64,000 bases of DNA from the NCBI GenBank assembly GCA_000004985.1, contig GG738858.1; one strand, given 5' to 3'. Source of the stretch: Naegleria gruberi. Lineage: Eukaryota. Below the pieces are notes generated by a model, which had not been told where the DNA came from, ran no database searches, and saw only the letters and a program-made list of their open reading frames with translations. Positions 15,560 to 64,000 of this stretch are shown piece after piece; the first letter of the stretch is position 1; each line of letters starts with the position of its first letter. The translations under genes and the position numbers were made by a program.

Positions 15560-15680
15560 GGCTACGGCCATATCACGATGAATGCACCTCATCCCGTCCG
15601 ATTTGAGAAGTTAAGCATCGTCGAGCCACATCAGTACTGAGGTTGGAGACAACTTGGGAACCTGTGGTGCTGTAGTCTTT
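15560..15680 (+). rRNA. 5S ribosomal RNA gene, copy 1
   Basis: ggctacggccatatcacgatgaa...ccgtccgatttgagaagttaagcatcgtcgagccacatcagtactgaggttggagacaacttgggaacctgtggtgctgtagtc fits the eukaryotic 5S consensus (GCCATAC-like 5' end, CCGATCTCGTCTGATCTCGGAAG-like core). It is followed by a T5 Pol III terminator. Confidence 0.85.
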
Positions 15681-15790: not shown

Positions 15791-16927
15791 TTAGAAACAC
15801 TTTCTATGAACAAAACCTGGACCAGCCTCCTCATATTCCTCTTTCGATATCCACATCTGCTGAAAGGTTGCAAGACTCGCGAGGATACTACCTCCAATCC
15901 AAACTGAATACTTTCTTTCAGGTGGGGCGACAACCTTTATCTTCATTGAGGCTGGTGCCAAAGCAGTCAATTCCTTGGTCATTCTTTCAGCAATACCTTC
16001 GAACATGGTATTACCACCTGACAAGACAACATTTCCATACAATTCCTTTCTAATGTCAATGTCACATTTACCAATTGAGTTGAATGCCATTTCATGAACA
16101 CCAGCAGCCTCCATTTTTTCAACCAAATTAGGTTGGAATAAAACTTCTGGACATCTGAATCGTTCGTTACCAATTGTTATCACATTACCATCTGGTAATT
16201 CGTATAACTTTTCCACGGAGGATGATTCAGCAGCAACTTTCATTTCAGCTTCGAAATCTAAAGCAATATAACAGAGCTTTTCCTTAATACCTCTGACAAC
16301 TTCTCTTTCAGCAGTAGTATTGAATGAGTAACCTCTTTCCATCAAAATATTCATCAAACAATCAGTCAAGTCACGACCAGCCAAATCCAATCTCAAAATG
16401 GCATGTGGCAAGGCATAACCTTCATAAATTGGAACAGTGTGTGAAACACCATCACCAGAATCCAAAACTATACCAGTACTTCTACCAGAAGCATACAATG
16501 ACAAGACAGCTTGAATGGAAACATACATGGCCGGAACTGAGAAGGTTTCAAACATGATTTGACTCATCTTTTCTCTATTTGGCTTTGGATTAAAAGGAGC
16601 TTCAGTCAACAAGACTGGATGTTCCTCAGGAGCAACACATAATTCATTGTAGAAGGTGTGATGCCAGATCTTTTCCATATCATCCCAATTAGTAACAATA
16701 CCGTGCTCAATTGGATACCTTAAAGTCAAGACACCACACTTGTATTGAGCTTCATCACCAACATAGGCATCCTTACCAAACATTCCAATCATGATTGACT
16801 TTTGCTTTGGTCTAGCAACAATTGAGGGAAAGACAGCTCTTGGAGCATCATCACCAGCAAAACCAGCTTTACACATACCAGAACCGTTGTCAACAACGAG
16901 AGTTTGAACGTCTTCATAGAAAGACAT
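15791..16927 (-). CDS. actin (conventional, slightly divergent N-terminus)
   Basis: Translation from ATG 16927 is [40 protein letters not shown]...[40 protein letters not shown]. This is near-identical to canonical actin over about 375 aa. The longer listed ORF (start 16990) adds 21 non-actin residues. Confidence 0.9.
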
Positions 16928-17219
16928 TTGATTTGTTTTTTTTAAAGTTTGTTCATCTGGACAACATTTGACAATTTGAAGTTGACTCAAGTCTTCATAT
17001 CAGAGCTATCAGTCATATCCGTCAAGTAAATGAAAAAAGAACTTTTGAATTTTTGCTGGTTCCTAAATTTAGAAAATATTGAAATGATATGGAGTTGGAT
17101 TGTTCTTTGTTCGATAGTAATTCAAAATAATTCAAAGATTGTTGTGAACATCCCTTGTTGAAGATCAATAGGTAAGAATGCTTACCATTCCCCAAATGAT
17201 TTCATCTATATTTCAGTTT

Positions 17220-18405: not shown

Positions 18406-18526
18406 GGCTACGGCCATATCACGATGAAAGCACCTCATCCCGTCCGATTTGAGAAGTTAAGCATCGTCGAGCCACATCAGTACTGAGGTTGGAGACAACT
18501 TGGGAACCTGTGGTGCTGTAGTCTTT
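18406..18526 (+). rRNA. 5S ribosomal RNA gene, copy 2
   Basis: Differs from copy 1 at one position (gatgaaAgcacc versus gatgaaTgcacc) across 119 nt. It shares about 60 bp of upstream flank with copy 1 (ttttgctttc..agattttcaatattctttatatt.attgt.ttaaggtaatgaatg). T5 terminator follows. Confidence 0.85.
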
Positions 18527-18704
18527 TTAATTAAGTTTTAAGACACATGAATCTTTAAAGTTGTTCATGTAGTCTTTTTGAGGAGAATTTTACTCCCTGT
18601 TCAAAGTATTAACATTTGATATTTGGGCATTTAATTAAAGTAGTACCACAACATCTTTCTCGGCCAATTGGCTTTGATCGAGTGAAGTTTCTGTTCTTTT
18701 CAGT

Positions 18705-19094
18705 TTAATAGCTGAAAGCAGCCCAAGGGTTGCCTCCTCTCAATCTCAATACTAAATGCACAGTTGAGTCCTTTTGAAGATTGTAATCATTAATGGTTCT
18801 GCCATCTTCCAATTGTTTTCCTGCATAAATCAATCGTTGTTGATCTGAAGGAATACCTTCTTTATCAAATATCTTTTGTTTCATATTCTCAACAGTATCA
18901 CTCGATTCCATTTCAATTGTAATTGTCTTTCCAGTTAAGGTTTTTACTTGTTTTCCAGCAAAGATGAGTCTTTGTTGATCTGGTGAAATTCCTTCCTTTT
19001 CTTGAACTTTTCTTTTCACATTTTCAATTGAATCATTAGATTCAACTTCCAAAGTGATTGTTCTACCAATGAGTGTCTTGACGAATAATTGCAT
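18705..19094 (-). pseudogene. ubiquitin-derived ORF with an internal partial duplication or deletion (likely a polyubiquitin remnant)
   Basis: [18 protein letters not shown]...RLIFAGKQV, then the reading restarts at [16 protein letters not shown]...[35 protein letters not shown], followed by NPWAAFSY. That is Ub residues 1-48 fused to Ub residues 6-76 plus an 8-aa tail. The two parts are about 65% identical at the nucleotide level. The ATG overlaps the stop of the upstream actin fragment (TAATG). Confidence 0.55.
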
Positions 19095-37179: not shown

Positions 37180-40100
37180 ATGACTCGATTATTACTCACG
37201 ACAGTTGTCATTTGTATTTCAATTTTGTTAGCCCTGACAGGATATATCAGTGCCGCGGTTACATGCAATGGTGTAGATCAGACAGATCCTTCAACCTGCA
37301 GTGGTCATGGTCTATGTAAAAGCAACAATAATTGCGCATGTCTTGACATGTCACCTGCCAATACATTAATTTCACAAACTGGAGGATACAATGGCATTCC
37401 AACAACATTAAATACCTCACGAACGCTAACTTCATCAAATGGTCAATATCAAGCATCATTAGATCCATCAACAGGTCGTTTACAAGTCCAAGATGTCACC
37501 AACTCGACCATCGTTTATCAAAGTGCAACTTTATTATCAGCAGCTTTATTTGCACCTTTTGAATTAAGATTATTTGTACCTTCATCTACTACCTGTCAAA
37601 TATCAATTTATGGAAATAATGTATTAGGTTTGACATTGACAGGTACAGTAAGTGCAATTTTGCCATGCAGATTGGTCATGAGAAATAATGGAGAATTAGT
37701 AATGTACAGTTCCGCTGGGTTTGTTTGGTGGACAACAAATCCATCACTGTCAACTGGCACTGAAGATTTAATTTATCAAGGTGTCAATTGCGCTTCACCA
37801 ACTTGTTATGGAATTTTGGCAGAATCTCCAAATGTTTGTTCTGGAAATGGAACTTGCACCTTTACTAATTCATGTTCTTGTAAAAGTGGACATTTCGGAG
37901 ATTTATGTGATGCTTTTAAATGTTTTGGAAATTTGGCAAATGACACGTTGAATGTTTGTTCAGGAAATGGAAATTGCATTTCTCCAAATGTTTGTTCGTG
38001 TAATTCTGGATTTTATGGACCTAATTGTGATTTAATCAAGTGTTTTGATGTGCTCAGTAATGAAACATCGAGTGTTTGTTCTGGACATGGAATTTGTTCG
38101 AGTACTGACAATTGCACTTGTGCAAACGGTTATTTGGGGAGTAAATGTAATCAGTTCGAGTGCTTTGGAATTTCAAATTCAGTAACTTCAGGACTCCAAT
38201 TGCCATGCTCTGGAAATGGAACATGTACTGGAATAGATCAGTGTGTATGTCAATCTGGATTTATTGGAAATGAATGTGAAACATTTAAATGTTCTAATTT
38301 TCTCAAGAATGACACTTTGAATGTTTGCTCTGGTAATGGATCATGTATTGCTCCTAATCAGTGTTCATGTCAATCTGGATTTTTCGGTTCGACATGTGAA
38401 GCTTTCAAATGTGGAAATGCATTATTCAATTCGAGTTCAGTATGTTCTGGAAATGGATTTTGTAATGCTCCAGATCAGTGCATTTGTAAGAATGGTTATT
38501 CTGGATCATTGTGTGATAAATTCACTTGCTTTGGAATTGCCAATGATTTAACAAGTGGTGGTCCATTAGCAGTTTGTTCTGGAAATGGAACATGTTCTGC
38601 GTTGGACAAGTGCATTTGTAATTCTGGATTTTTGGGTGACAGCTGTGACACTTTCAAATGTTTTAACAAGTTGAAGAATGATAGTTTGGTTTGTTCTGGT
38701 AAGGGAAGTTGCATTCTTCCAGAAACTTGTTCATGTTCGTTGGGATATGAAGGATTGAATTGTGACGGTTTCAAATGTTTTAACAAATTGAAAAATGATA
38801 GTTCAGTATGTTCAGGAAATGGATTATGTACTGATATTAATCAATGCTCGTGTAAGAATAATTGGTTAGGTCTTGATTGTTCTGTCACTTCTTGCTTTAA
38901 TTTACTGTCAAATGACACAACTGTTTGTTCTTCGAAAGGAAGTTGCGTTGGATTTAATCAATGCTCATGTCAATCTGGATATTTTGGTAGTCTATGTGAT
39001 GTTAAGAAATGCTTCTCCTACCTGTCAAATGAAACTTCACTTGTCTGTAATGGACAAGGAACATGTACTGATCTTGACACTTGTTCCTGTAACTCTGGAT
39101 TCCTTTCGAATGACTGTAGTGTCAATACGAATCCATTTTCCATTTCTTTGAACGTTTCTTCACTTTCCATTTATCAAGCTACTTCTTGGAATAGTGTGAA
39201 AATTTCCCTGTCAGAAGTTTTAAATGTCAATTTAATTAATTTCAATTGGTATTGCTTGGATTGTGTCACCAGGACAAGTTCTAATCTCCAGAAGGGACTT
39301 GTGAGTTCTTCACAAATTTTACAATTTAGAACTTCAGATTTAGTGGCAGGAACTTTTACATTTATTGCAAATGCAACATTTTCGAATATTTCACCATATC
39401 CAAAACGGGTTTCGAATAGTGTTTCATTTAAATTGACTGTATTGGATATTAATGTTCCTACTTTGGATGTTTTTGGACTTCCTTCAGTAATTATTTCAAA
39501 AATTGATCAACCAATTTCTAGTATAGTTTCTAGCATGACTTTAAATCAAACTTTGATTCAAAGTTTTATTGGAAAGTGTTCGAATGTTAGCTGTTCAACG
39601 CAGGTCACTTATTCTTGGACTATTTCATCTGCCGATAATACATTCAAGGCATCTTCTGATGGAATTACTAATATTCTCAACTTGGTTGATTCTACTATTA
39701 CAATTTCACCTCCAATTCAATTGACCACAAATTTATTGTCACTACTCAATAGTACTTTGACATTTTCTTTGAGTATTGTCAATCCATTACTGAAATCATT
39801 AACTTCATTGATCCAAATCCCAATTGTCTCTCCAGCTTTACCACCAACAGTTAATATTCCTGGATGGACAAGTGACGTTTACGGAGCTAACACGACCATT
39901 TCAAATGTCATGAGAGTTAGCCCAAGTCAAGGTATTTCACTCACTAATTTATTCACTATAACTATTGAATCATGGAGTGCTGATTCTAGACTCCTTCCTC
40001 TCAAGTATGCTGTTGGATTTTATGATAAAAAGACGAGTAAGCCAATTAGAGTAACTGAATATTCGAATCAAACCGAAATTTCAATTTATTTACCTTATAT

Positions 40101-42939
40101 GAAGTCATCTAGTTCAAAGAGATCTATTACTGCTGATTTGGAGAGTGTTGAATTGGTTGTGTTTATTATGGATGTGATTGGAAATATCGATTTCAGAAAG
40201 TCAGCAACTGTCTACCTGTCACCTTTTAGTGGAACAGCTACTCAATTGACAGAAAAGATTAATTCATTGACAGGATATGCAATTACTGTTGCCTCCTATG
40301 ATCAATCCTTGTCATTATTGAGTAGTACAGTTAGTGATTTAACTCTCAGTCTGATTAAGAACATTACAATTGATCCAAAATTCCCAACAGCTGCTCTTAA
40401 TAGTTTACAATCTTTGACAGCTGATGTCAATTCATTGACAAGAGAAATTGTTATTGAGGTGAATAGCAAATTGAATGGATTTATTACATCTGTGAATGGC
40501 AGCTATGCTGATGATAAGAAGAATTACGGATTTGTCAAGAGCAAACTAGCAAATTCTGATGTGACTTTGACAGTTTCTGTCAGTTCTAATTTATTGCAAA
40601 GTGTATTCGAAAGTGAAGGTACCAAGAATGTTGTCAATCAATTGGTTTCTACTATTTTATTTGGAGAAATCGCTAACATGATTCAATCAAGTCAAAAAAC
40701 ACTTAGTTCAGTTTCGTATAGTTCCAATCTAATTGACTTTGCAGTTTCCAGCTTTATATTGTCCAATCAAGTGAAATCGAATCAAACTCAATCTATCCTT
40801 ATGGGTAACTACACCAGTGTCTCTATGAATATTTCAAATATCATGAGTCAATATAATGCATTCTCAAAAGATTGTGGAATTTCTCTAATTGTCTATTCCA
40901 AGAATACTAACTTTGACAATTCTACTAACAAATTGAAACTTGTTTCAAGTGTTAACGATTTCAAGTTCAGCGTTGATTCATCTGTTGTGCCTCTCTCAGA
41001 TTTGACTCAACCAATTATTCTTCAATTTGAGCTTGTGGACGAATTGACTACAATTTTAGAATCTTTGAAAAATGAAACTCTGAATGTAACTCAAAATGAT
41101 CCAACTCAATCCCTCTCAACCAATGAACAAAAGTATTTGTGTAAATATTGGGACGAATCAAGTCAATTGTGGAGTTCTAAAGGATGTTCCTTCAAGAGTG
41201 TGAATTTACAATCCAAAACAATTGAATGTTCATGTGTTCACACAACCATGTTTACAACATTCATTGAACAGAACAGTACATTTATCAGTAATCTTAAAGA
41301 TCAAGTATCAGCTCTCTATTCAGTCCAAATAGCTTTTGGCATCATCTATGCAAGTGTTGCTACTGTAATTTTAATTGGATTAATTGCATTCAGAAAGGAA
41401 CAACCAGTTTCCTCCAGATTAATGACTCCATATTTTGGAATGGTTGCCTTGATCGCAGAAAGTGTTTTGATTTACATTATTCAGAGAAGTATTTTGGCTG
41501 ATCAATTGTTGAATTCTTCACCATCTGTATGGGAAACTGGTGATACAGCTGCTAATATTATTGCCAATGTAGTTGCTATCGTTGTCAATACTTTGAATTT
41601 GACAGCTATTTTGAGCTATGTCATTCAAGTGACAAGATTCCAATTAATGAAATACTTGTATCAAATCTTGTCTTCCAGTAGAGGAAATGAACAAAAGAGT
41701 GAACATACAATTAATGTTATCAGATTTTTGACAGCTCCAAGTTTGTCAAATTCAATTCTTTCAGCATTTGCTGGTGTGAATGTAATTTATTGGTTATTGT
41801 GGGTAATTTTGAGAAGAACCAATGCAATTGAACCAGCCACCTATACTTACATTGTTTCCATTTCGTATACAGTGTGCATTCTTGTATTCAGTGTCTTGAT
41901 TACTATTGTGGCTGTTTTAGATTTTATTGGCTCTACAAAGAAACATTTGGACATGAATACAAAGAGAAGAACAGCTATGGATCACTTAGTTGAGAATCCA
42001 AGCTCTAGTTTCAAGAAGGATAAGAAGAAATTCGTTGGAAATCCAGCCAAAATTTTCAGAGATTGGCTTATTACATTGGACGGTCCTCTCTACTTTAGAA
42101 TGGAAATGATCTTGTACATTATTTGCTTTATTTTCTTAGTTTTGAATCAAGGTATTGGATTGAGTAGTTTACCATACAGATATGAAAGTGTTGATTCATT
42201 TAGAAAAGCTCTCCTTTCTGATGGAATTTCGTTTATCTTTGAAGTTTTATATGTAGTGAGCTATATTTTCGTATTTGGTGGATATGCACTGATTATCACA
42301 CTCAAATACAAGTATCAAAAGTGGAAATATCAACAAGCACTCAAGGCAGCAGCTACAGAACCTCAAAATGAGGAAATTTGGATTGATGAGGCAGTTGATG
42401 AAATTCTCTCATCCCAAGAAGGAACAAGTCTATTCGAAACTTTTTGTGTCAAGGAATTCTCATGTGAAAATCTCTATCTCTATCAAGATTTACATGCCAA
42501 TAAGGAAATTATTGATGGAAACAATTTCAAGGACCTTCCAAGATTCATGTCCTTTGTTTTCCACAACTATGTCAAAGTGGGAGCTCCATCAGAAGTCAAC
42601 CTACCTTCCAGTAGTAGAAACTCATTCCTATTCCTCTTCAGATCAGCACTCTCTCAAAAAGAAACCTTCTCCTCCAGCCAACAAATTAAATTGGATTCGA
42701 ATCTGTTGCGAGATTTCGAAGCAGTAGAAAAGGAAATTCACACCGAAAATATTCCAATTGTCGAGTTGAATGCAACAAATATTAAGGATTGCTTTGAAAA
42801 TTTGGATAGAAATGTTTTGATTAATATTGGAGATACCTTCTCTCGATTTGTTTACACTCCGGAATATAAGATTTTTAAAAAGGCAAAGGAATTGCAAAAT
42901 GCAATGATTCAAAAGGCAAATATTGTGTATGGATTGTAA
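37180..42939 (+). CDS. giant receptor: signal peptide, ~15 EGF-like repeats, long S/T-rich extracellular stalk, GPS-like motif, 7TM domain, and C-terminal RGS domain
   Basis: ATG 37180 with signal peptide MTRLLLTTVVICISILLALTGYISA. The EGF-like repeats have the pattern CSGNG.C....C.C..G..G..C (about 37830-39125). The GPS-like motif CKYWDESSQLWSSKGCSF...CSCVHTTMFTTF lies immediately before the first TM helix. Seven hydrophobic helices follow. The RGS-box sequence FETFCVKEFSCENLYLYQDL...FHNYVKVGAPSEVNL is at the C-terminus. Single exon, 1919 aa. Confidence 0.75.
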   Translation: MTRLLLTTVVICISILLALTGYISAAVTCNGVDQTDPSTCSGHGLCKSNNNCACLDMSPANTLISQTGGYNGIPTTLNTSRTLTSSNGQYQASLDPSTGRLQVQDVTNSTIVYQSATLLSAALFAPFELRLFVPSSTTCQISIYGNNVLGLTLTGTVSAILPCRLVMRNNGELVMYSSAGFVWWTTNPSLSTGTEDLIYQGVNCASPTCYGILAESPNVCSGNGTCTFTNSCSCKSGHFGDLCDAFKCFGNLANDTLNVCSGNGNCISPNVCSCNSGFYGPNCDLIKCFDVLSNETSSVCSGHGICSSTDNCTCANGYLGSKCNQFECFGISNSVTSGLQLPCSGNGTCTGIDQCVCQSGFIGNECETFKCSNFLKNDTLNVCSGNGSCIAPNQCSCQSGFFGSTCEAFKCGNALFNSSSVCSGNGFCNAPDQCICKNGYSGSLCDKFTCFGIANDLTSGGPLAVCSGNGTCSALDKCICNSGFLGDSCDTFKCFNKLKNDSLVCSGKGSCILPETCSCSLGYEGLNCDGFKCFNKLKNDSSVCSGNGLCTDINQCSCKNNWLGLDCSVTSCFNLLSNDTTVCSSKGSCVGFNQCSCQSGYFGSLCDVKKCFSYLSNETSLVCNGQGTCTDLDTCSCNSGFLSNDCSVNTNPFSISLNVSSLSIYQATSWNSVKISLSEVLNVNLINFNWYCLDCVTRTSSNLQKGLVSSSQILQFRTSDLVAGTFTFIANATFSNISPYPKRVSNSVSFKLTVLDINVPTLDVFGLPSVIISKIDQPISSIVSSMTLNQTLIQSFIGKCSNVSCSTQVTYSWTISSADNTFKASSDGITNILNLVDSTITISPPIQLTTNLLSLLNSTLTFSLSIVNPLLKSLTSLIQIPIVSPALPPTVNIPGWTSDVYGANTTISNVMRVSPSQGISLTNLFTITIESWSADSRLLPLKYAVGFYDKKTSKPIRVTEYSNQTEISIYLPYMKSSSSKRSITADLESVELVVFIMDVIGNIDFRKSATVYLSPFSGTATQLTEKINSLTGYAITVASYDQSLSLLSSTVSDLTLSLIKNITIDPKFPTAALNSLQSLTADVNSLTREIVIEVNSKLNGFITSVNGSYADDKKNYGFVKSKLANSDVTLTVSVSSNLLQSVFESEGTKNVVNQLVSTILFGEIANMIQSSQKTLSSVSYSSNLIDFAVSSFILSNQVKSNQTQSILMGNYTSVSMNISNIMSQYNAFSKDCGISLIVYSKNTNFDNSTNKLKLVSSVNDFKFSVDSSVVPLSDLTQPIILQFELVDELTTILESLKNETLNVTQNDPTQSLSTNEQKYLCKYWDESSQLWSSKGCSFKSVNLQSKTIECSCVHTTMFTTFIEQNSTFISNLKDQVSALYSVQIAFGIIYASVATVILIGLIAFRKEQPVSSRLMTPYFGMVALIAESVLIYIIQRSILADQLLNSSPSVWETGDTAANIIANVVAIVVNTLNLTAILSYVIQVTRFQLMKYLYQILSSSRGNEQKSEHTINVIRFLTAPSLSNSILSAFAGVNVIYWLLWVILRRTNAIEPATYTYIVSISYTVCILVFSVLITIVAVLDFIGSTKKHLDMNTKRRTAMDHLVENPSSSFKKDKKKFVGNPAKIFRDWLITLDGPLYFRMEMILYIICFIFLVLNQGIGLSSLPYRYESVDSFRKALLSDGISFIFEVLYVVSYIFVFGGYALIITLKYKYQKWKYQQALKAAATEPQNEEIWIDEAVDEILSSQEGTSLFETFCVKEFSCENLYLYQDLHANKEIIDGNNFKDLPRFMSFVFHNYVKVGAPSEVNLPSSSRNSFLFLFRSALSQKETFSSSQQIKLDSNLLRDFEAVEKEIHTENIPIVELNATNIKDCFENLDRNVLINIGDTFSRFVYTPEYKIFKKAKELQNAMIQKANIVYGL
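37830..39125 (+). repeat. tandem array of EGF-like coding repeats (~120 nt units) within the 37180 gene
   Basis: Repeated tgttctgg(a/t)aatgga...tg(t/c)...tgt...tctggattt...tgtga units, visible at both the nucleotide and protein level. Confidence 0.7.
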
Positions 42940-43075: not shown

Positions 43076-44767
43076 ATGGAAGGAAACTTTTCGAATCTTC
43101 CTTCCGAAGTTTTATTCTTCAAAATTCTTCCACATTTCGAATACAAGTGGATTTTGAATGTGGGAAGATTAGTTTGCAAGGAATGGAATGAAAATTACAA
43201 ATCAATTCCAACTTTTTACTTTCCGATAAAATATTGTGGAAACGAGACGAAACTAAAAAATTTGATAAAGCATTCTGATGAATTAGCAAAAGTAACATCT
43301 CTTTATTTAGAAAGAAAAGAAAATCACCTAATTTCGAATAATGAATTAGAAAGTGAATTTGTGTTAAAATTGAAAAATTTGAAAGAATTGAATATTACAC
43401 GTTATAATTGTTCATTCTTGTTGGAAGATTTTGCAAAATTGAAAAAATTGGAAGAAATTAATTTAACTTTGATAACATTCGAACAAGTTACTGAGATTGT
43501 GAAATATCTGTCACATGCCAAATCATTTTCTTTTTGTCATATTTCACGATTGAATGAATTATTTGTTATTCATGATTCAATACCTTTGAAAAAACTAACT
43601 GTTAGTCCATCGTCATCCAATGAGCTAATTTCAATATTAGAAACTAAACCTGTCAAAAGTCTAACTGAACTTTATTGTTTCAATTGTGGTCAATTATCAT
43701 TGAAAAATATTGGATCACTTGGTAATTTACAGAAATTAGACATTTCTGGGACCAGTTTCAAAGATGAAGAATCCTTGAAATATTTATTGAATTTGACAGA
43801 ATTGGATGCAAGTAGTACTAACATAAATGGAAATGGACTTTCCAATTTAGGAAAATTACAAAATTTGAAAGTTTTAAAACTTGCAAGTAATCATATTGAA
43901 AATGAAGGAGCTAATTACTTGAATTTACTTTCAAATTTATCAAAATTAGATCTTTCCAATAATTGTATTAGCGATGAAGGTTTACAAAATTTTCCCAAAC
44001 TTTACAAATTAGAATATTTAAATTTATCCAACAACAAAATTAAAATTATGGGAGCAAATTATCTTTCCCAAATGGAAAATTTAATTTTTCTTCACTTGCC
44101 CAAAAATTGTATTGAAGAGGAAGGTTTGAGAAATTTTGGAAATTTGAAATTTTTAAAGGAATTATTTTTGGGTTCTAATTTCATTGGAAGTGGAATTCGT
44201 CATCTTGCCAAATGTCATTCTTTAGAGAGATTATATGTCAATTCTAATTTAATCAACGATCAGCAAGCAGTTGATGAATTTTGTGGAAATTTGAATCTAA
44301 GAGAATTGGAAATTTTCAAGAATGATTTAACTGAAACCTGCTGTGAAAGTATTTCAAAATTAAGCAATTTGAAAAAGTTGAATATTTCAGAAAATCCAAT
44401 TGGTAATGGAATTTCCAATTTGGGAAAATTACAAATTTCAAAATTGGAAGCAAAAAATTGTAAAATTACAGATGAAGGAATTATTGAATTTTTCAAATCC
44501 TTCCAAAGAAGTGAAAAAAGTGAAAAATTGGATCTTTTTCTGGAAGATAATGAATTTACAAATATTTCAATAATTCAATTTTTGGAAATAGCTGACAAAC
44601 TCAATAGTCTTTCGATTTCTTATTCACAGAATTTTAATTTAGAAGAAACTCAAAGATTACATTACAAATTGAAAAATTTGAATATCCAAGGTGAACCCAT
44701 CCAAATCTCGAAAAGGAAGGAGATGCCTTTTGAATTCAATTGGTTTTTTAAATTTTTTAATGATTAA
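43076..44767 (+). CDS. F-box-like / leucine-rich-repeat protein
   Basis: The N-terminus LPSEVLFFKILPHFEYKWILNVGRLVCKEW is an F-box-like motif. It is followed by more than 12 LRRs of the L..L.L..N.I...G type (LKVLKLASNHIENEGANYL, LEYLNLSNNKIKIMGANYL ...), the ribonuclease-inhibitor-like LRR class. Confidence 0.6.
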   Translation: MEGNFSNLPSEVLFFKILPHFEYKWILNVGRLVCKEWNENYKSIPTFYFPIKYCGNETKLKNLIKHSDELAKVTSLYLERKENHLISNNELESEFVLKLKNLKELNITRYNCSFLLEDFAKLKKLEEINLTLITFEQVTEIVKYLSHAKSFSFCHISRLNELFVIHDSIPLKKLTVSPSSSNELISILETKPVKSLTELYCFNCGQLSLKNIGSLGNLQKLDISGTSFKDEESLKYLLNLTELDASSTNINGNGLSNLGKLQNLKVLKLASNHIENEGANYLNLLSNLSKLDLSNNCISDEGLQNFPKLYKLEYLNLSNNKIKIMGANYLSQMENLIFLHLPKNCIEEEGLRNFGNLKFLKELFLGSNFIGSGIRHLAKCHSLERLYVNSNLINDQQAVDEFCGNLNLRELEIFKNDLTETCCESISKLSNLKKLNISENPIGNGISNLGKLQISKLEAKNCKITDEGIIEFFKSFQRSEKSEKLDLFLEDNEFTNISIIQFLEIADKLNSLSISYSQNFNLEETQRLHYKLKNLNIQGEPIQISKRKEMPFEFNWFFKFFND

Positions 44768-46695: not shown

Positions 46696-48324
46696 TTATT
46701 TTCTCTTTTTCTTTTGTTTAATTTCTTGTTTGAATTTCATAAATGGTTCTGCCATTGATTCGCAAACACTCTTTTGCAATTCATCAAACAAGTCGTCTTC
46801 TAAAATGCTAGAAGATGAGAATTCATCCAATCTTGTTTTAACTCGTTCTTGAAGAGCAGTGCTTGTTTTGAATGGTGTTTCTCCATTTACATCAATGAAT
46901 TCAGTAAATATCTTGAAAGCAACTTCGTATTTGTTTCTTTCCAATTCCTCAACTTTCTCAATTTCCTCAATATCGCTAATTTTCGTATTCTTGCTCTTTT
47001 GTTCAGCAACACCTCTCAAGTAGTGGGCTTCCTCACAGAGTTCCTTGTAAGAGTGGCAATTGTCCAACAAGGTAAATGAATCCAAACAATTTTCTCTATC
47101 ACAGAAAGCTCTGAATAAAGCATTATACTTATCACTTCCAACAGTTTCCATTATCATAATATGAGCAGCTTTTCGGAGTTTTCTTGTGCTTGTAACTTCA
47201 GTAGTCAATGCCATGGCAAAGATTAAAATAACTATTGGAACACTAACAATTACACCAAACAAAACTAAACCCATGTTCACAGCGCTTGCCATCCTTAAAT
47301 ACTCTTTCTTCTCATTTGCAAGTTTGACAATTTCTTTTTGTACTTTGATTAAGAAAAGTTGGGTTATAGTATCTGCTGAATAGTATTGGAATGATTTTCT
47401 TTTTTCCCTTGCAGATATCATGTCTCCAATAGCCACATAATCCATAACTAGATCATTCAAAGTAGTTATTTGCGTATTCAAATATTCGGATGGTTTCACA
47501 GTTCCATTAGGCAAAGTTAGTGCAAGCTCTACTAGGGTGGTATTGGCAAGGGCTCGCTTTATATAATATTCCCCAACCAGACTCTGGTTTCCAGTGGCTG
47601 CAGCTACTCTTACAGTACAGTCAATATCGTGATAGAGTTGCAAGTAGTCTGTTCTCTTGAGGAGCATATAGGTTTCCTTCTGGGCATCCAATTTGAAAGC
47701 ATTTCCAACAATTACAGCCACAGCTATAAAAGCAGCAATATTGATAAGCATACCAAACAGTGAGAGAATTCTGACAAGATTCAGTTCTATTATACCACAA
47801 CATGTAGGAATACGAAATGTCACCGAAGAGACGGTAGACTTGCCCGACTTGGCTGTTGTCTTACTGAATATTGATTCAACTGTAGGTTTTTGTGGTTGAG
47901 CAAACGAGACTCTTTTATCACCTGGTGTTTGTGGAGTATTGTTTTGGGCTCTACTCATTCTATATTGTTGTTGTTGTGGTTTAATTGAAGATAAGGTTAA
48001 TGGTTTAGTGACAAATCTTCTAGCAAAGTGTACCACAATACTATCGGCATCACTACAGGCATCGTCATCTTCGTCGTCTTCATCCTCAATTTTAGTTTGT
48101 TCCTCATTGTGAGTATTGACAGTGATACAAACTTTCTCTTGAGCTTGTTCTTCGTCAATCTTTTTCAAATCCTTTAGTTCAATAGATGTTGAAGTAGAAG
48201 GATTGTCTTGATGATTCTGAATGGTTTCAATTGTTTGTGATGGGGGTGTTGAAGATGGATGATCACCTTCAGGCGACGAAGTAGAAGATAACGAAGAAGA
48301 CATTTTTTGTGTGTTGGTATTCAT
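46696..48324 (-). CDS. membrane protein (2 predicted TM helices) with a C-terminal RGS-like domain (paralog 1)
   Basis: S-rich N-terminus. TCCGIIELNLVRILSLFGMLINIAAFIAVAVIV is TM1 and MGLVLFGVIVSVPIVILIFAMAL is TM2. The C-terminal NALFRAFCDRENCLDSFTLL...EVAFKIFTEFIDVNGETPFKTSTALQERV resembles the RGS box (F..F...E...E.L.F...AxxIYxxFI...A...VN). Confidence 0.5.
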   Translation of the reverse strand: MNTNTQKMSSSLSSTSSPEGDHPSSTPPSQTIETIQNHQDNPSTSTSIELKDLKKIDEEQAQEKVCITVNTHNEEQTKIEDEDDEDDDACSDADSIVVHFARRFVTKPLTLSSIKPQQQQYRMSRAQNNTPQTPGDKRVSFAQPQKPTVESIFSKTTAKSGKSTVSSVTFRIPTCCGIIELNLVRILSLFGMLINIAAFIAVAVIVGNAFKLDAQKETYMLLKRTDYLQLYHDIDCTVRVAAATGNQSLVGEYYIKRALANTTLVELALTLPNGTVKPSEYLNTQITTLNDLVMDYVAIGDMISAREKRKSFQYYSADTITQLFLIKVQKEIVKLANEKKEYLRMASAVNMGLVLFGVIVSVPIVILIFAMALTTEVTSTRKLRKAAHIMIMETVGSDKYNALFRAFCDRENCLDSFTLLDNCHSYKELCEEAHYLRGVAEQKSKNTKISDIEEIEKVEELERNKYEVAFKIFTEFIDVNGETPFKTSTALQERVKTRLDEFSSSSILEDDLFDELQKSVCESMAEPFMKFKQEIKQKKKRK

Positions 48325-51743: not shown

Positions 51744-53258
51744 ATGATATGGAATTGCCGTCATGGAATCGGTATACCTTCAACATCTCAAGACCAATCC
51801 TTTAATCGTTCCCATTGTCATTCGTCTACTTTCGATATCTTTCAAAAAATGTCTCAAGACCATCACCACCATGCTTCTGAGCTACAAATAATCGTATCTC
51901 CAGAGACCACTACCAACACTCTAACAAGTGATTCCCACAATCCAATGATAACGAGTCACCAAACTTCCAATACAGAATCATCAACTCAACCTCCACTTAA
52001 AAAGAAGACAACTTTCGCATCACGTGATGAACACATAGCTACAACCATAGCCATTCAAGAAGATAAAACAGAAAGTACAAGTATTTTCAGTAAGACTACT
52101 AGTGCTCAATCACTTTCATCTCAAACTAAACTCAGAATTAAAACATGTTGTGGAATAATCAAGTTGAATACTATGAGATTATTGTCAGTGGTGGCCATGT
52201 TTGTCAATTCCATTGCTTTTATTGCTATTGCTGCTGTTGTAATTAATTCGTATACGTTACAGACTTCGGTTGATACTGATCTGTTATTGAATAGAGGTGA
52301 TTTAGTTTCGTTTACTGAAAAAACCGAATGTGCTGTTAAACTGACAGCTTATGAAAATAGAACAGCCTATACAGAATCATATTATGTTAATTATCAGAAT
52401 GTTACTAATCTACTTTCCACATTGAAACAAGTTTTACCTTCAAAGATTTATACTCTGAATGGAGTTGACGTTCCAACTAAGAAAATGGATGATGAAATTC
52501 TGACACTTGTTGGCAATGGTTATGGAGGTCAAGCTCTGAATATTCTCAAGTCATCTGAATATATCAGTCAACAAGTTGCTTACGATACTTTCTTACAATC
52601 CATGTTGGATTATTCGAATGATATGGCCGAATCTAAGAATTCTTATATTTTCATTTCTAGTATTGTAAACTTGGTTTTGGTTGTAATTGCCTTGGTAGTT
52701 GTCGTGCCAACTGTCTTTGTTGTCTTTGCAATGGCCATCAAGAAGGAAGGAAACACATCAAAAAAGTTAAAGAAGGCAACTGCATTCATGTTGTTAGACA
52801 CAATGGAAGATGAAGTAATGAAATCAAAATTCAAAGAGTTTTGTAAGATGGAAGGTCACGGAATTGACCTTTTCCATTTTATTGAGAAAACTGTTAGCTA
52901 TACTCATTTGTGTGAAAAACAAAATGAAATGATGGATAAACTTGCCAAGAATAAGGGAGATCCAAAGGCAGTAAGAGATTTTGAAAAGGAAAAGTACATT
53001 CTTGCCTTTGAAATATTTGCCGAATATTTGGATGAAGATATTGGTGAGTATCCAATTCTTGTCAGTGGTGCATTGCATGAATGTTTGAAAAATAGAATTG
53101 ACGACTTTTCAATTAATGAAGCAGAGACCTATCTCAAGGAAAATCTCTTTGAAGATATTCAAAAGGAAGTTGCAATGACTTCGCTCAATGATTTGCACTT
53201 CAAATTTAAACAATTCTTGATGGCTAGTAAGAAGCTTCAAGTCAAAACACAACAATAA
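51744..53258 (+). CDS. membrane protein with a C-terminal RGS-like domain (paralog 2; likely true start ATG 51849)
   Basis: KTCCGIIKLNTMRLLSVVAMFVNSIAFIAIAAVVI is TM1 and IFISSIVNLVLVVIALVVVVPTVFVVFAMAI is TM2. MKSKFKEFCKMEGHGIDLFHFIEK...ILAFEIFAEYLDEDIGEYPILVSGALHECL is the RGS-like region. The architecture is the same as 46696..48324, with about 30-35% identity. Confidence 0.5.
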   Translation: MIWNCRHGIGIPSTSQDQSFNRSHCHSSTFDIFQKMSQDHHHHASELQIIVSPETTTNTLTSDSHNPMITSHQTSNTESSTQPPLKKKTTFASRDEHIATTIAIQEDKTESTSIFSKTTSAQSLSSQTKLRIKTCCGIIKLNTMRLLSVVAMFVNSIAFIAIAAVVINSYTLQTSVDTDLLLNRGDLVSFTEKTECAVKLTAYENRTAYTESYYVNYQNVTNLLSTLKQVLPSKIYTLNGVDVPTKKMDDEILTLVGNGYGGQALNILKSSEYISQQVAYDTFLQSMLDYSNDMAESKNSYIFISSIVNLVLVVIALVVVVPTVFVVFAMAIKKEGNTSKKLKKATAFMLLDTMEDEVMKSKFKEFCKMEGHGIDLFHFIEKTVSYTHLCEKQNEMMDKLAKNKGDPKAVRDFEKEKYILAFEIFAEYLDEDIGEYPILVSGALHECLKNRIDDFSINEAETYLKENLFEDIQKEVAMTSLNDLHFKFKQFLMASKKLQVKTQQ

Positions 53259-57289: not shown

Positions 57290-59383
57290 ATGGAAGGAAA
57301 AATCTTTCGGACAACAATAAACTCCTCAACTCCACCAATTAATAGTTCTAAAAAAATGGAAGAAAATTCTCTGCTGTTATCCACAAGAATGAACTCTTCC
57401 GAAGAGGTCTCTTTAAATCATGATCATTATGAAAATTACAATGGAATTGCATCAAATAATCATCACGATGAAGGAAACTTTTCATCATCGGAAGCAAATA
57501 TTAACGGTGATGAAAAGTTTATAAGTGTTGATGATGCCATTGAATGGATGGGGTTTGTATTCTTCTGATGTATGAATGTGAATGAATGAAAATTAATTGT
57601 GTGCACAGAGTTGGAAAATTTCAAATTATCTTGTTGTTTGTGTGTGGAATTGCTTGGATGGCTGATGCATGTGAAATTATGTTATTGAGCTTTATAATGC
57701 CTGCTGTGAGGGATATTTGGAATTTGGGATCGGCTGAAGAGGCAACGATTGGTGGCATTGTGTTTGCTGGCATGTTGATTGGTTCATCATTTTGGGGATT
57801 TATTTGTGACAGATTTGGAAGAAAGATTGGTATTGTGGCAATTTTTACAATTTGTTCGATATTTGGATTAGGAAGTGCATTCTGTCCTAATTTCTGGTCA
57901 TTGGTAGTGGTTAGATTCTTTGTTGGATTTGGAGTAAGTTTTGTTGAATTGTGTGAATTATTTGAATTTGTTTTATATGAATTTTCTGAATTTTCTTGAC
58001 TTTTTGACAGGTTGGTGGAAGTCATGCCCCATTTTCATTATTTGTAAGTTTTCTTCATTGATATTTAGATTAGATGATTTAATTTTGTAAAATATTTGTA
58101 AATGTGAACCAAATTTGTTATTGAAAAATTAAGACTGAATTCTTGCCAAACAAATCGAGAGGTTTCTTCTTATTATTGATTGAAGTTTTCTGGACTGTGG
58201 GAACTGTGTTGACCTCAGTGATGGCTTTGGGTGAGTTTTGAAATTTACCACATTTTTAACATGTTGTGAAAATTAGTATTCTTGGGATTTCCTGAAATAT
58301 TTGGAGATTATGGTTGGAGATATCTTGTTGGAGTCAGTTGTTTACCAAACGTAATCATGTTATTTTTCGTTCCATTTCTTCCAGAATCACCTCGAGTTTT
58401 GGTATTGAAAGGAAATGTTGAAAAGGCAGAACGAGTTTTCAAACGTCTTGCTTGGTGGAATAATCGACCAATGTTTGAAGGAAAATTGAAAGTTGATGAA
58501 AATGCAACCAAGAAGAAGGGAGGATCTATCTTACTCTTTTTCACAAAACCATTGTGGTTCAGTAGTCTTCTCATTTTAATCTTGTGGTTTATTGGTGTGA
58601 GTTTTGATTGATTTTATTGAGATTTTAATGAGTTTACAATTATGATGATGATAATTTGTGGAAAATTAAATCACTTGATGAATTGGAAATGTGAATTGTG
58701 GAAATAATCAACAAATTATTGGAAACTTTGAAAATTTAAGGCATTGGCTTATTATGGAGTTGTGGTCATTACTCCAAATTATTTTGGAAACAATACTAGC
58801 AAGCTCTCTGTCTACATTAATACCATTATTGTTTCTGGAGCTGAGTTACCAGGATTATTATTTGCCTATTCTGTAATTAACACATTTGGAAGAAAGAAGA
58901 CAATTAGTTTACTTTTCCTTTCGACTGGTTTATTCCTAGGATGTTTAGCCATTCCAACAGAAACCTGGTTATTAACCATCTATGCAGTTGGTGCAAGAGC
59001 TTCAATTATGGGTGCAACTGTAAGTATTTTACAATTCACATTTGTGAAATTCAAACAAAATTACAATTTTTGTAAAGTGTGCTCTTTGGGTCTATACTCC
59101 TGAGGCTTTCCCGACCAATATTCGATCTCTTGGAACAGGAATGGCAAGTGCAAGTTCAAGAATTGCAGCTATTGCCACTCCATACATTGCAACCATGCTG
59201 TCAAAAATCAATCCAGTCATTCCAGTAGCTATTTATGGTGGCTCATGTCTGATTGCTTTCGTCATGGGACATATTTTGCCATACGAAACAAATGGCAAAT
59301 CATTGGCTAATGATGTAAGTGAGCTGGTGAATTACTCAACCAAGAGAAGAAAAAAGACTGAAAAAAGCATAACTGATAATTAA
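57290..59383 (+). CDS. MFS transporter of the SV2 / organic-ion type. It has 7 exons: 57290..57552, 57609..57933, 58011..58043, 58134..58230, 58277..58596, 58741..59019, 59078..59383
   Basis: Splice sites (GTTTGT, GTAAGT, GTAAGT, GTGAGT, GTGAGT, GTAAGT donors; AG acceptors) join into one frame. The joined product reads ...DDAIEWMGVGKFQIILLFVCGIAWMADACEIMLLSFIMPAVR...GFICDRFGRKIG...VGGSHAPFSLFTEFLPNKSRGFFLLLIEVFWTVGTV...ALAYYGVVVITPN...CALWVYTPEAFPTNIRSLGTGMASASSRIAAIATPYI. These are the MFS signatures D-R-x-G-R-K and PESPR. Exon 1 and its first splice are the least certain. Confidence 0.6.
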
Positions 59384-60430: not shown

Positions 60431-63400
60431 ATGAAATATGCACAAATCCTCCTTCTCATCATTATTATCATAATTTGTTTTCTTTCTTCTCTTTCTTCCG
60501 CTCAAAATTCGATTCTTTTTGTTGAACCAAAAATTGGACGAAACCAAACTAATTGTTCCAATCCGAATCTTCCCTGTGATTCAATATCCAATGCACTGTT
60601 ATCAGTTCTGCAGAATAATAACACAACAATAGTGAGGATAATTTTACTTTCCGATATTACAAAATGTACTTTGAAAAATATTCCAACTTTCGTCAAGGAA
60701 TTGGAAATTATCGGAAACAATGAAACTCTAAAATTTACATGTAATATTGATACACACTCATCCTATTTGAAATTAACAGTTTCTAATTTGACATTAATTG
60801 GAGATTTCTCTGTTGATGGATCACAGGAAAGTGTCATTTTGGAAAATGTAGTTTCTTCCAATTTCATGATTATTATTTCGAAACAAATCGTATTTAACAA
60901 TGTGAGGACCACTGGTTATTCTACAGTGTTCGTAATAGCATCATCTTCTTTAGAAATTGATAATTGTCAAATTAATGGAAGATTTTCTGTTCAGACTGAT
61001 GGTTTGAAATATCCGAAAACATTTATTAGAAACTCAATATTTAGAAATAGTTTATTGACTATTGGACTTGAAACTGTCTTTGGAGTATCAATTAATTACA
61101 GACAATTGTTTGTAATTTCATCATCTTTTTATGATTCAATCTTGTTGGTGAAGGATAATTCAATAATAAGTATAAGAAACTCTATTTTTGATGGATATTT
61201 CTCTTCAGTGAGTAAGGATCAGGGAAGTATTCTGTACGTTTCGTCATATTCCCCTTCAGCTCTTACTGTGTATGATTCAGTTTTTAGAAATAACATTGTG
61301 GATGGAGCTGTACGATTGATTGGAGCAGGAATCAATTCATACTTTAAAAATTGTTCATTTTCTGATAATGCCAATCATTCTGGAGGTCCAGCTCTCTACT
61401 TGGCCAATATTTATGCAGCTGTCATTGAGAATTCAGTTTTTATTAATAATGAATTTGTAAGGTTGAATGTCTCTAATGTACAAAATAGAGAGGAGTTGGG
61501 TGGAGGAGCAATTTTTCAGAGACAATCCATTCTGACCACTGCTAATTGTTCCTTCATTAATAATAGAGCTAATCAAGGTCTTGGTGGAGCAATTTTGACA
61601 AGTCATTCGACGATTTATAATAGTAATGATGATGTAAGTATTCTTGAGCTAATTGAAAGTTGACCATTCATGTAATTAGGTATTTTTTAATAATACAGCC
61701 AAGATTGGTGGAGCAATAGCCACATTAGACACAAGTTCATTCCTTGCAGCTTCTATTGAGAGTTCTAAATTCCTAAATAATTCAGCAACCATGTTGGGAG
61801 GAGCTATCTTTTCCTTTAAAAGTAAATACGTTAGCATTCCAGTTCTAACAGATTTTATTGGAAACAGAGCTCATTACGGAGGAGCCATTTATTCAGTTTC
61901 TACTTATTTTAGAGTATACGATGTTGAACTTGTTGATTTTCAAGATAATTATGAAACTGGACCTAATGGTGAGAAATTATTAAGTAATTACAAATCATTT
62001 CCTGACAATTTTAAGTTGAATATTACAAATTCCAATAATATTAAGGAAAAGACATTCAATGTAAATTTTGGAGAACGTGTAGAGATTCAATTCTCTCTTT
62101 CAGAAACGTACAGGTATTTGCACAGCGATTTCATAGACAATAGTCCAATAAGTATTGATATTAAGGTAGATGGAGCTGTCATTGATTTTGAAGGATCTTC
62201 ATATAGAAAAAATATCATGGCAACATTTTACAGTAATTCCAAAGAGAGAAAGAAATTTACATTTACTATTACCTTGAGTTTTGATGTGTTAAAATCATTC
62301 ACCTATTCAGTTTCAGAAACTTTCACAGTCGAACCAATGGAATGCAAACCTAGCTATTGGTATGACATGGTAGTTAAAAATCAAATCAACAACCAATCAG
62401 TGTATGGATGTGGTTTCAGTTGGTATAGCATTCTACCATTTATTTTCTTTGGATTTTTAATAATTTCAGTAATTGTTATTGTAATTTCCTTGTTTGCCTT
62501 TTTCAAGATTAGGAAAATGAAGAGCAAACTCAAAATATTAGACAAGAAGGAGCAAGCAGAAGTGGAATTGAATCAAAGATTGATTGAATTGGAACAATTA
62601 TACACCTCTGAATTACAAAACAAGTTTTACATGAAGGATTGGATGATAAAGGTAGAGGATATCAAAATCATTTCAAAAATAGGAGAAGGAGGAATGGGAG
62701 TTGTTTATCGTGGAATGTTTTCAATGCACGAAGTTGCTCTTAAAACTGTCAAGATTGACAGCGACGATCTTGAATCCAATGAATTTGAAAAAGAAGCAAG
62801 CATCCTTTCATCCATGAGACATCCCAACATTGTTGGATTCTATGGGGTTTGTGTTACTGACACAACCAGATTCATGGTCACTGAGTACATGTCTGGTGGA
62901 AGTTTGGATTCTTTCATTTACAATTGTAAAATCAAAACTCGACACATTACAATCCCAATGAAAATCTCAATCTTGATAGGAATAGCCAATGGAATGAACT
63001 ATCTACATACTGGAAAGGGTGACATTGTCATTCATCACAGAGATTTAAAACCAGCTAACATTCTCCTTACAAATGATTTAATTCCCAAAGTTTGCGATTT
63101 TGGATTATCGAAATTATCCAAAGATTCTGGAAAGAGCTCCAAAACAACCAACATAGGAACTCTGTATTTCATTGCTCCTGAAATGTTACTTGGAAAGGAT
63201 TACAATCAAACAATTGATGTTTTCAGTTTTTCAATTATTATGTGGCAATTAATATTTGACGAAACTCTTCTCTACGATTCTTCCTATTCCACTAATCCAA
63301 AGTTTACCAGATTTATGAAAAGTGAGGAAATCAAACAATTTGCCACATTGGTTGACTCTTCTTATATTCTAGTTCCAAAATTGGTTACAGAAGGATTACG

Positions 63401-63644
63401 TTTGCCCATTCCAAAGATTTCTTTGGATTCGACTGAATTACGTGAATGGATATTTGAATATTTCATTAATGATGATGCAAAAATTGATATGCAATACAGA
63501 GAAGACTCATTTGAAAGATATTCGAATGGTTTGAGTGCTCTATTCGAATTGATGGAAAAATGTTGGCGAGAATCAATTGTTGAAAGACCTTCCTTCAGTG
63601 TAATTTCGAAAGAATTATTAACCATTAGGAATATGTTCAAGTAG
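60431..63644 (+). CDS. receptor-type protein kinase (2 exons: 60431..61633, 61680..63644) with a signal peptide, parallel beta-helix (pectate-lyase-like) ectodomain, one TM helix, and a cytoplasmic TKL/tyrosine-like kinase
   Basis: Signal peptide MKYAQILLLIIIIIICFLSSLSSA. The ectodomain has repeated N.xxN.......GGAI / SxF.NN units (parallel-beta-helix style). A 46-nt intron (gtaagt...aattag) joins ...NSNDD|VFFNNTAKIGGAIA. TM helix is ILPFIFFGFLIISVIVIVISLFAFF. The kinase carries IGEGGMGVVYRG, VALKTVK, HRDLKPANILL, DFGLS and APE. Confidence 0.7.
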
Positions 63645-64000
63645 AGATTATCTATTACTACTTTCTAATAAAGCCAATGAATTATGTTGAATTCATTTTT
63701 TGTTTGGTAAAAGTACTGCATCTTCAGCTCTTTCAGCTCTGTGAGTGTCCGAGGAAAGTTGATTTGGGTAGCATCTATCAAAAGCAAAGTAAAGTCATGG
63801 CACTCCTATGATGCATCATACAGTGCTAAATTAGTTTTTTAAGTTTAAAGGTATTTTTGGAGCCTACCGATGCCATAATGGTTGATTCTGCCACAATTTC
63901 AAGAACCTTCAATTTCCGCCAATCAGAGTAGCTTGAAACATTGTGCAACAGTGAACTTAGACCTAAACCTATAGATATGGAGTTCTCAGTGGAAGATTAT

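Follow-up and report, generated by a model that had tools for sequence, protein, structure and literature searches.

The gene and its product

The gene considered here occupies positions 60431-63644, on the plus strand, of a 64,000-nucleotide stretch of Naegleria gruberi DNA (contig GG738858.1 of assembly GCA_000004985.1; this entire stretch is called the window in what follows). That its two exons form one gene and that the product is a type I receptor-like kinase can both be stated with high confidence: a signal peptide, an extracellular domain, one transmembrane (TM) helix and a cytoplasmic kinase are all found in a single polypeptide. The extracellular domain contains repeats of the type known from the chlamydial Pmp proteins, and the kinase is, on its motifs and closest matches, a Ser/Thr kinase of tyrosine kinase-like (TKL-like) affinity. 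The parts of the gene are as follows.

60431-61633 (+): exon 1, codons 1-401, with the ATG start, signal peptide, N-terminal cap and most of the beta-helix (open reading frame list and splice reconstruction)
61634-61679 (+): intron, 46 nt, phase 0, GTAAGT...TAG; it includes the in-frame stop that ends the first open reading frame
61680-63644 (+): exon 2, codons 402-1055 and the TAG stop, with the last beta-helix rungs, stalk, TM helix, juxtamembrane helix and kinase
63667-63672 (+): AATAAA hexamer 23 nt past the stop codon, read from the sequence as a possible poly(A) signal

Within the protein the following segments are distinguished; AF2 and pLDDT stand for AlphaFold2 and its predicted local distance difference test, and P0251 is a metagenomic homolog to which much of the argument returns.

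60431-60502 (+): signal peptide, residues 1-24 (MKYAQILLLIIIIIICFLSSLSSA); hydropathy peak at residues 3-24, cleavage site presumed
61274-61937 (+): canonical Pmp-type rungs, residues ~282-487, interrupted by the intron; motif positions, Pfam, AF2 pLDDT 80-97
61944-62420 (+): membrane-proximal region (stalk), residues ~490-648; beta-strand rich; alignment; AF2 pLDDT below 50
62430-62504 (+): single TM helix, residues 652-676 (ILPFIFFGFLIISVIVIVISLFAFF); top hydropathy window, AF2 helix 653-708
62505-62660 (+): juxtamembrane helix, residues 677-728 (KKEQAEVELNQRLIELEQLYTSELQNK...); paralog alignment, BLASTP against P0251
62661-63617 (+): protein kinase domain, residues 729-1047; Pfam, motifs, PDB sequence matches

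Two open reading frames joined by a short intron

The list of open reading frames (ORFs) contains two at this locus, ORF1 at 60431-61663 (410 aa) and ORF2 at 61791-63644 (617 aa), both on the plus strand and in different frames. The donor, GTAAGT, starts at 61634 and the acceptor, TAG, has its last base at 61679; excision of these 46 nt restores one frame and generates a coding sequence of 3168 nt, with 1055 codons for 1055 amino acids. The frame of ORF2 is open from exactly 61680, the first base past the acceptor, and encodes there VFFNNTAKIGGAI, a perfect repeat unit. The preliminary description of this DNA had proposed the same in-frame 46-nt intron, and the proposal withstands comparison with the DNA of paralogs and homologs, by which, rather than by transcripts, the splice was judged.

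Two contigs in the European Nucleotide Archive (ENA), here designated L001 and L002, are near-identical to the N. gruberi paralogs NAEGRDRAFT_80536 and NAEGRDRAFT_48784. At the homologous codon, L001 carries a 43-nt phase-0 intron (GTGAGT...AAG) and L002 a 53-nt phase-0 intron (GTAAGT...TAG), each of them preceding the next FxNNTA..GGA rung. The junctions to be compared are SSSN followed by MFENNTAVYGGA and SSVD followed by YFYNNTASYGGA at the paralog loci, and NSNDD followed by VFFNNTAKIGGA in the window gene. P0251, for its part, is a single uninterrupted ORF of 1039 aa that comprises ectodomain, TM helix and kinase. It reads through the junction as DDVFYFNTAKYGGAIA, where the window gene has DD joined to VFFNNTAKIGGAIA; its BLASTP alignment with the spliced window protein spans residues 277-1047 at 36% identity (E 7e-157) and is ungapped at the junction, where it runs SVDDVFYFNTAKYGGAIAS. 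Because the position and phase of the intron are kept while the intron sequences are unrelated, and because an intronless homolog reads through, ORF1 and ORF2 are taken to be one gene, and the evidence at the level of sequence that 60431-61663 and 61791-63644 belong together is strong.

Short introns of this kind are found elsewhere in the window by a mechanical scan: the candidates, among them those at 50462-50419 (-), 50001-49956 (-) and 59020-59077 (+), are 44-59 nt long, have a GTA[AT]GT donor and an AG end, and each bridges long open frames.

The ectodomain

Only two segments of the protein are strongly hydrophobic by hydropathy analysis, residues 3-24 (the signal peptide) and 652-676, so that the single TM helix previously proposed is the one hydrophobic segment besides the signal peptide. 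Between them, Pfam identifies Chlam_PMP (PF02415) in three stretches, with 29.1 bits against a gathering cutoff of 20.6. The canonical rungs comprise about 8 units of 25-38 aa each with FxxN and GGAI/GGPA motifs, and include five paired FxxN...GGA units, at residues 310, 375, 403, 432 and 460. In 20,000 composition-preserving shuffles, 99.1% contained no paired unit and none contained more than two. In chlamydial Pmps, paired FxxN and GGA(I/L/V) motifs are the buried elements of beta-helix rungs, and these pairs also occur in proteins of Trichomonas, of archaea and of other bacteria (PMC10715098, PMC11166332).

The beta-helix as a whole takes in about residues 25-480 (~450 residues) and extends over both exons, with degenerate rungs upstream of residue ~282. 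The preliminary description had placed a signal peptide and about 450 aa of beta-helical repeats in the 5' exon: the signal peptide is there, but exon 1 encodes 401 aa with the signal peptide included; the repeat units are borne out by the Chlam_PMP match and the five paired units, but canonical rungs are confined to residues ~282-487. It had also recommended a search for Beta_helix repeats, and here expectation and result part company: neither Beta_helix (PF13229) nor the pectate lyase and glycoside hydrolase families of Pfam match the spliced protein at E<=1, and the family that does match is that of the Pmp repeats. "Pectate-lyase-like" thus holds as the name of a fold class, with no enzyme signature found to go with it. 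The Pmp middle domain and the autotransporter beta-barrel (PF03797) likewise have no Pfam match at E<=1, and the stalk (residues ~490-648) has no Pfam match.

The ectodomain contains 14 N-glycosylation sequons. Alignment of the paralogs shows two conserved pairs of cysteines, Cys42/Cys49 in the N-terminal cap and Cys623/Cys645 adjacent to the membrane. On the other side of the TM helix, the juxtamembrane helix, with the pattern KKEQAEVEL.Q.L..L..LY.SEL..K, is the best-conserved segment of the family outside the kinase.

Two AF2 models were constructed. The full-length model, from an 8-sequence family alignment, is poor overall (pLDDT 57.5); it has a beta-solenoid at residues 25-475 and a continuous helix, residues 653-708, that passes from the membrane into the juxtamembrane region. 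The model of the ectodomain by itself, from 33 sequences, reaches a predicted template modelling score (pTM) of 0.73, with three-strand rungs and pLDDT 80-97 over residues ~124-474. The final ~150 residues of the ectodomain have pLDDT below 50 in both models. A Foldseek search with the full-length model was discarded since matches of the poorly modelled kinase dominated it, and the ectodomain was re-modelled alone. Structural comparison of the ectodomain model yields only right-handed parallel beta-helix proteins, a fold class that Foldseek finds weakly (best E 6e-4). These neighbours in structure comprise adhesins, proteins by which phages bind their receptors, and glycan-active enzymes, with sequence identities of 6-15%. 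The modelling supports folding of the Pmp-type repeats as a right-handed parallel beta-helix, and the independent Pfam family assignment agrees with it.

The kinase

Residues 729-1047 match two Pfam kinase models above their cutoffs, PK_Tyr_Ser-Thr with 167.9 bits and Pkinase with 161.8 bits. The catalytic motifs named in the preliminary description (G-loop, VALK, HRDLKPAN, DFG and APE) are present as quoted, at residues 736 (GEGGMG), 753, 854, 874 and 900, and CW..RPSF is also readable. With every catalytic motif intact, this RD kinase, whose activation loop is rich in Ser and Thr, is predicted to be active. The Pkinase envelope takes up 311 residues (731-1041) for 253 profile positions; a stretch of ~60 aa between subdomains IX and XI, which lies outside the Pfam Pkinase model and is kept in P0251, is specific to the family.

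Among solved structures the best relatives are CTR1 (2.8e-35), SymRK (2.5e-34), DLK and TAK1, all of the TKL group, with EGFR, Eph and Abl ranked in among them; in sequence the kinase comes closest to Entamoeba transmembrane kinases (TMKs) labelled "tyrosine kinase, putative", and to CTR1 and SymRK. The catalytic loop is HRDLKPAN, of the Ser/Thr type, and not the HRDL(A/R)A(A/R)N of receptor tyrosine kinases, which argues that the enzyme is TKL-like rather than a tyrosine kinase. The designation "TKL-type" can accordingly be retained in the form "TKL-like", on the grounds of that loop and of the kinase's resemblance to CTR1, SymRK, DLK and also Eph and Abl.

A small Naegleria family

Relatives over the full length of the ectodomain are few. 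When 1.8 billion representative proteins were searched exhaustively with HMMER, the product of exon 1 being the query, only NAEGRDRAFT_48784, NAEGRDRAFT_80536 and ENA metagenome contigs came up. Word-indexed searches, whether with the full protein or with a three-paralog profile, returned only generic Pmp proteins and kinases and missed the true family, which was recovered by the exhaustive representative search together with local hmmsearch. Its members are NAEGRDRAFT_80536, NAEGRDRAFT_48784, P0245, P0249 and P0251, and the window gene belongs to a small family of the Naegleria lineage, with at least four paralogs in N. gruberi-like genomes and more distant metagenomic relatives. P0251 is one of the metagenomic members; it comes from ENA contig k141_916086 (locus L003, 39% GC), which has no synteny with the window outside the gene itself. 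Two metagenome loci of the Joint Genome Institute (JGI), L004 and L005, which are the best matches to the kinase region, were rejected as unrelated dual-kinase proteins lacking Pmp repeats; three further JGI loci (L006-L008) match more weakly, with 22-28% identity over part of the kinase.

Both N. gruberi paralogs share with the window protein its signal peptide, Pmp-type beta-helix, stalk with a Cys pair, TM helix, KKEQAE...LY.SEL juxtamembrane helix, kinase with the same C-lobe insertion, and intron at the same codon. NAEGRDRAFT_80536 (UniProt D2VMG6, 1081 aa) has the same architecture, and its kinase is 55% identical. The paralogs differ from the window gene in lying at other loci, in their diverged ectodomains (about 33% identity) and in possessing a second intron, just past the G-loop, that the window gene does not have. 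The public models of 80536 (P0307) and 48784 (P0246) each leave out a whole FxxN/GGA rung near the conserved intron. The DNA of the corresponding contigs offers short canonical introns, at 2775-2817 in L001 and 1924-1976 in L002, that retain the rung and give more regular proteins; judged by sequence, the public gene models appear to mis-splice the conserved intron. The model of NAEGRDRAFT_48784 (D2VE07) additionally has an unrelated N-terminal sequence fused on and breaks off past the kinase G-loop. With its paralog models seemingly mis-spliced and the window product missing from the protein collection referred to below, the family is in need of re-annotation.

Literature searches combining Naegleria with receptor kinase, Pmp and kinome found no description of the family. 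UniRef names NAEGRDRAFT_80536 (D2VMG6) "Uncharacterized protein FM172". The "FM" presumably denotes the flagellar-motility-associated gene catalogue of the N. gruberi genome paper; a literature search on this gave nothing.

Relation to Pmp proteins and to receptor kinases

The likeness of the window protein to chlamydial Pmps consists in pairs of an FxxN with a GGA(I/L/V) motif, spaced ~25-30 aa apart, that form the rungs of a cell-surface beta-helix. Chlamydial Pmps, however, are autotransporters of type V, in which a Pmp middle domain is combined with a beta-barrel at the C-terminus. The window protein has neither, and has instead a eukaryotic signal peptide, one TM helix and a kinase. Because the defining middle domain and beta-barrel are absent, it is a Pmp-repeat protein and not a Pmp. 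Chlamydial Pmp21 is described as an adhesin and invasin (PMC3635982). Closer in topology are the Pmp-like proteins of trichomonads (e.g., TvPmp), with FxxN/GGA repeats in the N-terminal part and one TM segment at the C-terminal end; they are TM-anchored and promote adherence, but their cytoplasmic tails are short, with endocytic motifs and no kinase, and the word "kinase" does not occur in the paper that describes them (PMC6701047).

Chlam_PMP repeats N-terminal to PK_Tyr_Ser-Thr, above cutoff, are also found in proteins of Protostelium nocturnum (P0003), Creolimax fragrantissima (CFRG3155T1, P0008) and a JGI metagenome (P0015), with a hydrophobic, TM-like stretch readable ahead of the kinase in each. 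These proteins are about 1760-1830 aa long and have extra Cys-rich modules resembling TNFR and EGF; their kinases are only 25-35% identical to that of the window protein, and their catalytic loops are HRDMAARN and HRDVAARN (tyrosine kinase-like) and HRDLKCAN (TKL-like). The differences in length, extra modules and loop type, and the low kinase identity, point to independent domain fusions rather than orthology, and on this comparison of sequences the Pmp-repeat kinases outside Naegleria are likely to have arisen independently.

With the Entamoeba TMKs, the plant receptor-like kinases (RLKs, such as SymRK) and the Raf-like kinase domain of CTR1, the window protein has in common a type I topology in which an ectodomain peculiar to the lineage accompanies a TKL-like Ser/Thr kinase. 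It differs from the Entamoeba TMKs and plant RLKs in that its ectodomain is a Pmp-type beta-helix and not leucine-rich repeat (LRR), lectin, CXXC-rich or EGF-like, and in its family-specific C-lobe insertion and conserved helical juxtamembrane segment. The ectodomains of protist TMKs are in general highly lineage-specific, and about 40% of their non-kinase domains have no Pfam annotation (2023 cross-kingdom survey, PMC10463195). That survey does not mention Naegleria, Pmp or beta-helix domains, and a paper on holozoan phosphotyrosine signalling (PMC4342544) does not mention Pmp or beta-helix ectodomains. The combination of Pmp beta-helix and kinase is unusual and undescribed in the literature searched, but it is not unique. 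The earlier statement that no standard receptor of animals, plants or fungi is built in this way is a fair one, to be read without any suggestion of uniqueness, given the paralogs in N. gruberi and the fusions in Protostelium, Creolimax and the JGI metagenome. What the window protein presents is an unusual variation, by way of a Pmp-type beta-helix, on the theme of the protist receptor-like kinase, and no new signalling principle.

A proposed mechanism and its alternatives

The most likely function is that of a surface adhesion or glycan-sensing receptor kinase. In the mechanism proposed, the glycosylated beta-helix would be displayed at the cell surface and serve as an adhesin- or lectin-like face that binds a ligand outside the cell; the most plausible is a polymer or a molecule fixed to a surface, such as a glycan or protein of bacterial prey, of the substrate or of a cell surface. 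Multivalent binding would cluster the receptors, clustering would allow the juxtamembrane helices to pair, and the kinase domains so brought together might trans-phosphorylate one another's activation loops, passing the signal to cytoplasmic Ser/Thr targets. Taken in its general form, as a two-exon N. gruberi gene (60431-63644, plus strand) for a 1055-aa type I receptor-like Ser/Thr (TKL-like) kinase with an adhesin- or lectin-like clustering mechanism, the proposal is probably correct; the specific mechanism is put forward more tentatively, at somewhat less than an even chance.

Several considerations weigh against this interpretation and bear on how far each part of it can be pressed. An exact copy of the spliced product, or of either ORF, was not found in a collection of 15 billion proteins. 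The TKL-like assignment comes from best matches and motifs rather than from a kinome tree. The stalk and the kinase are poorly modelled by AF2, which is, besides, prone to over-confident beta-solenoids when given repeat sequences (bioRxiv 10.1101/2024.10.30.621056). Many of the structural neighbours of the ectodomain are glycan-degrading enzymes, which leaves room for an enzymatic ectodomain. Ligand, localisation, oligomerisation and kinase activity, finally, are all things that we infer.

The alternative that there are two separate, unspliced genes, one for a secreted 410-aa Pmp-repeat protein (60431-61663) and one for a TM kinase starting at Met 61791, has in its favour that each ORF is intact by itself and that prokaryote-style gene callers break the paralogs identically on the ENA contigs. 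It is nonetheless very improbable. It would have to account for a frame that opens precisely past an AG acceptor and that, upstream of Met 61791, codes for a perfect Pmp rung, for an ORF2 product with about 210 aa of extracellular beta-helix and stalk and no signal peptide, for an intron whose position and phase are common to two paralogs that differ in intron sequence, and for a homolog, P0251, that holds everything in one uninterrupted ORF. No more credit is due to the idea of a pseudogene, a member of the 80536/48784 family that is decaying or has fallen silent and yields no functional product. The family is indeed multi-copy, and the product is missing from the protein collection although two paralogs are annotated, but that absence may merely reflect how the collection was assembled; 1055 codons run uninterrupted after one canonical splice, and the catalytic motifs, the conserved cysteines and the juxtamembrane helix have all been kept in a protein whose ectodomain is only about 33% identical to those of its paralogs.

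The structural neighbours just referred to also invite the reading that the ectodomain is a membrane-tethered polysaccharide lyase, hydrolase or epimerase, with the kinase reporting on it or regulating it, for example in the processing of cyst wall or prey glycans. This is unlikely, if less so than the two alternatives at the level of the gene: all of the structural matches are at only 6-15% sequence identity, no enzyme family and no Beta_helix or pectate-lyase model of Pfam matches, and the Pmp-repeat family, the one that does match, figures in the literature as a scaffold of adhesins (PMC10715098, PMC6701047).

Very little is understood of the ways in which Naegleria and other free-living amoebae perceive prey, surfaces or one another. 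By joining an adhesin scaffold to a kinase of predicted activity, the family offers a concrete candidate, open to experiment, for the sensing of contact or glycans by a heterolobosean, and it exemplifies a recurrent fusion between a bacterial-type surface module and eukaryotic kinases. A bolder conjecture would be that Pmp modules, plausibly of bacterial origin, were captured independently as receptor-kinase sensors in Discoba (Naegleria), Amoebozoa (Protostelium) and Holozoa (Creolimax), and constitute a convergent "adhesin-kinase" class. We regard this as doubtful; were it true, touching prey or a surface would, in these bacterivorous or osmotrophic protists, feed directly into signalling by phosphorylation.

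Other genes in the window

The window is AT-rich (34% GC) and gene-dense. At 33792-36773 (+) it encodes a 993-aa protein with a kinase domain, five DUF4116 repeats and Sel1 repeats, and at 43076-44767 an LRR protein; with these, the 30 kb upstream of the beta-helix kinase gene are rich in genes of the signalling type. Between them lies an intronless ORF of 1919 aa (37180-42939, plus strand) with a signal peptide, a Teneurin-type EGF array (EGF_2, 161 bits) and a C-terminal regulator of G-protein signalling (RGS) domain (29 bits). It has a multi-pass hydrophobic region by eye, and its unusual receptor-like architecture resembles a fusion of the G-protein-coupled receptor-like/RGS kind. Near it are a smaller TM-RGS protein at 46696-48324 (-) and an apparent paralog of the latter at 51744-53258 (+).

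Further upstream, minus-strand ORFs at 2770-4563 and 5702-7570 are tandem paralogous genes for multi-TM proteins of the alpha/beta-hydrolase fold. The blocks 3422-3721 and 6327-6626 in them are 100% identical over at least 300 nt, with ~120 aa identical, and the remainder of the proteins is diverged; the identical block suggests recent gene conversion or assembly collapse. An actin ORF at 15791-16990 (-) is 100% identical over its whole length of 378 aa to NAEGRDRAFT_44432, which marks the window as nuclear DNA of N. gruberi. Rfam identifies two 5S rRNA genes (15560-15678 and 18406-18524), a U2 snRNA (18651-18773) and three tRNAs, and around the actin paralog dispersed 5S rRNA and U2 snRNA genes are interleaved with protein-coding genes.

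Just ahead of the beta-helix kinase gene, at 57290-59383 (+), short hydrophobic, transporter-like ORFs on the same strand seemingly constitute one multi-exon gene with several short introns; its candidate intron at 59020-59077, of 58 nt, is a further sign of the short-intron style of this genome.

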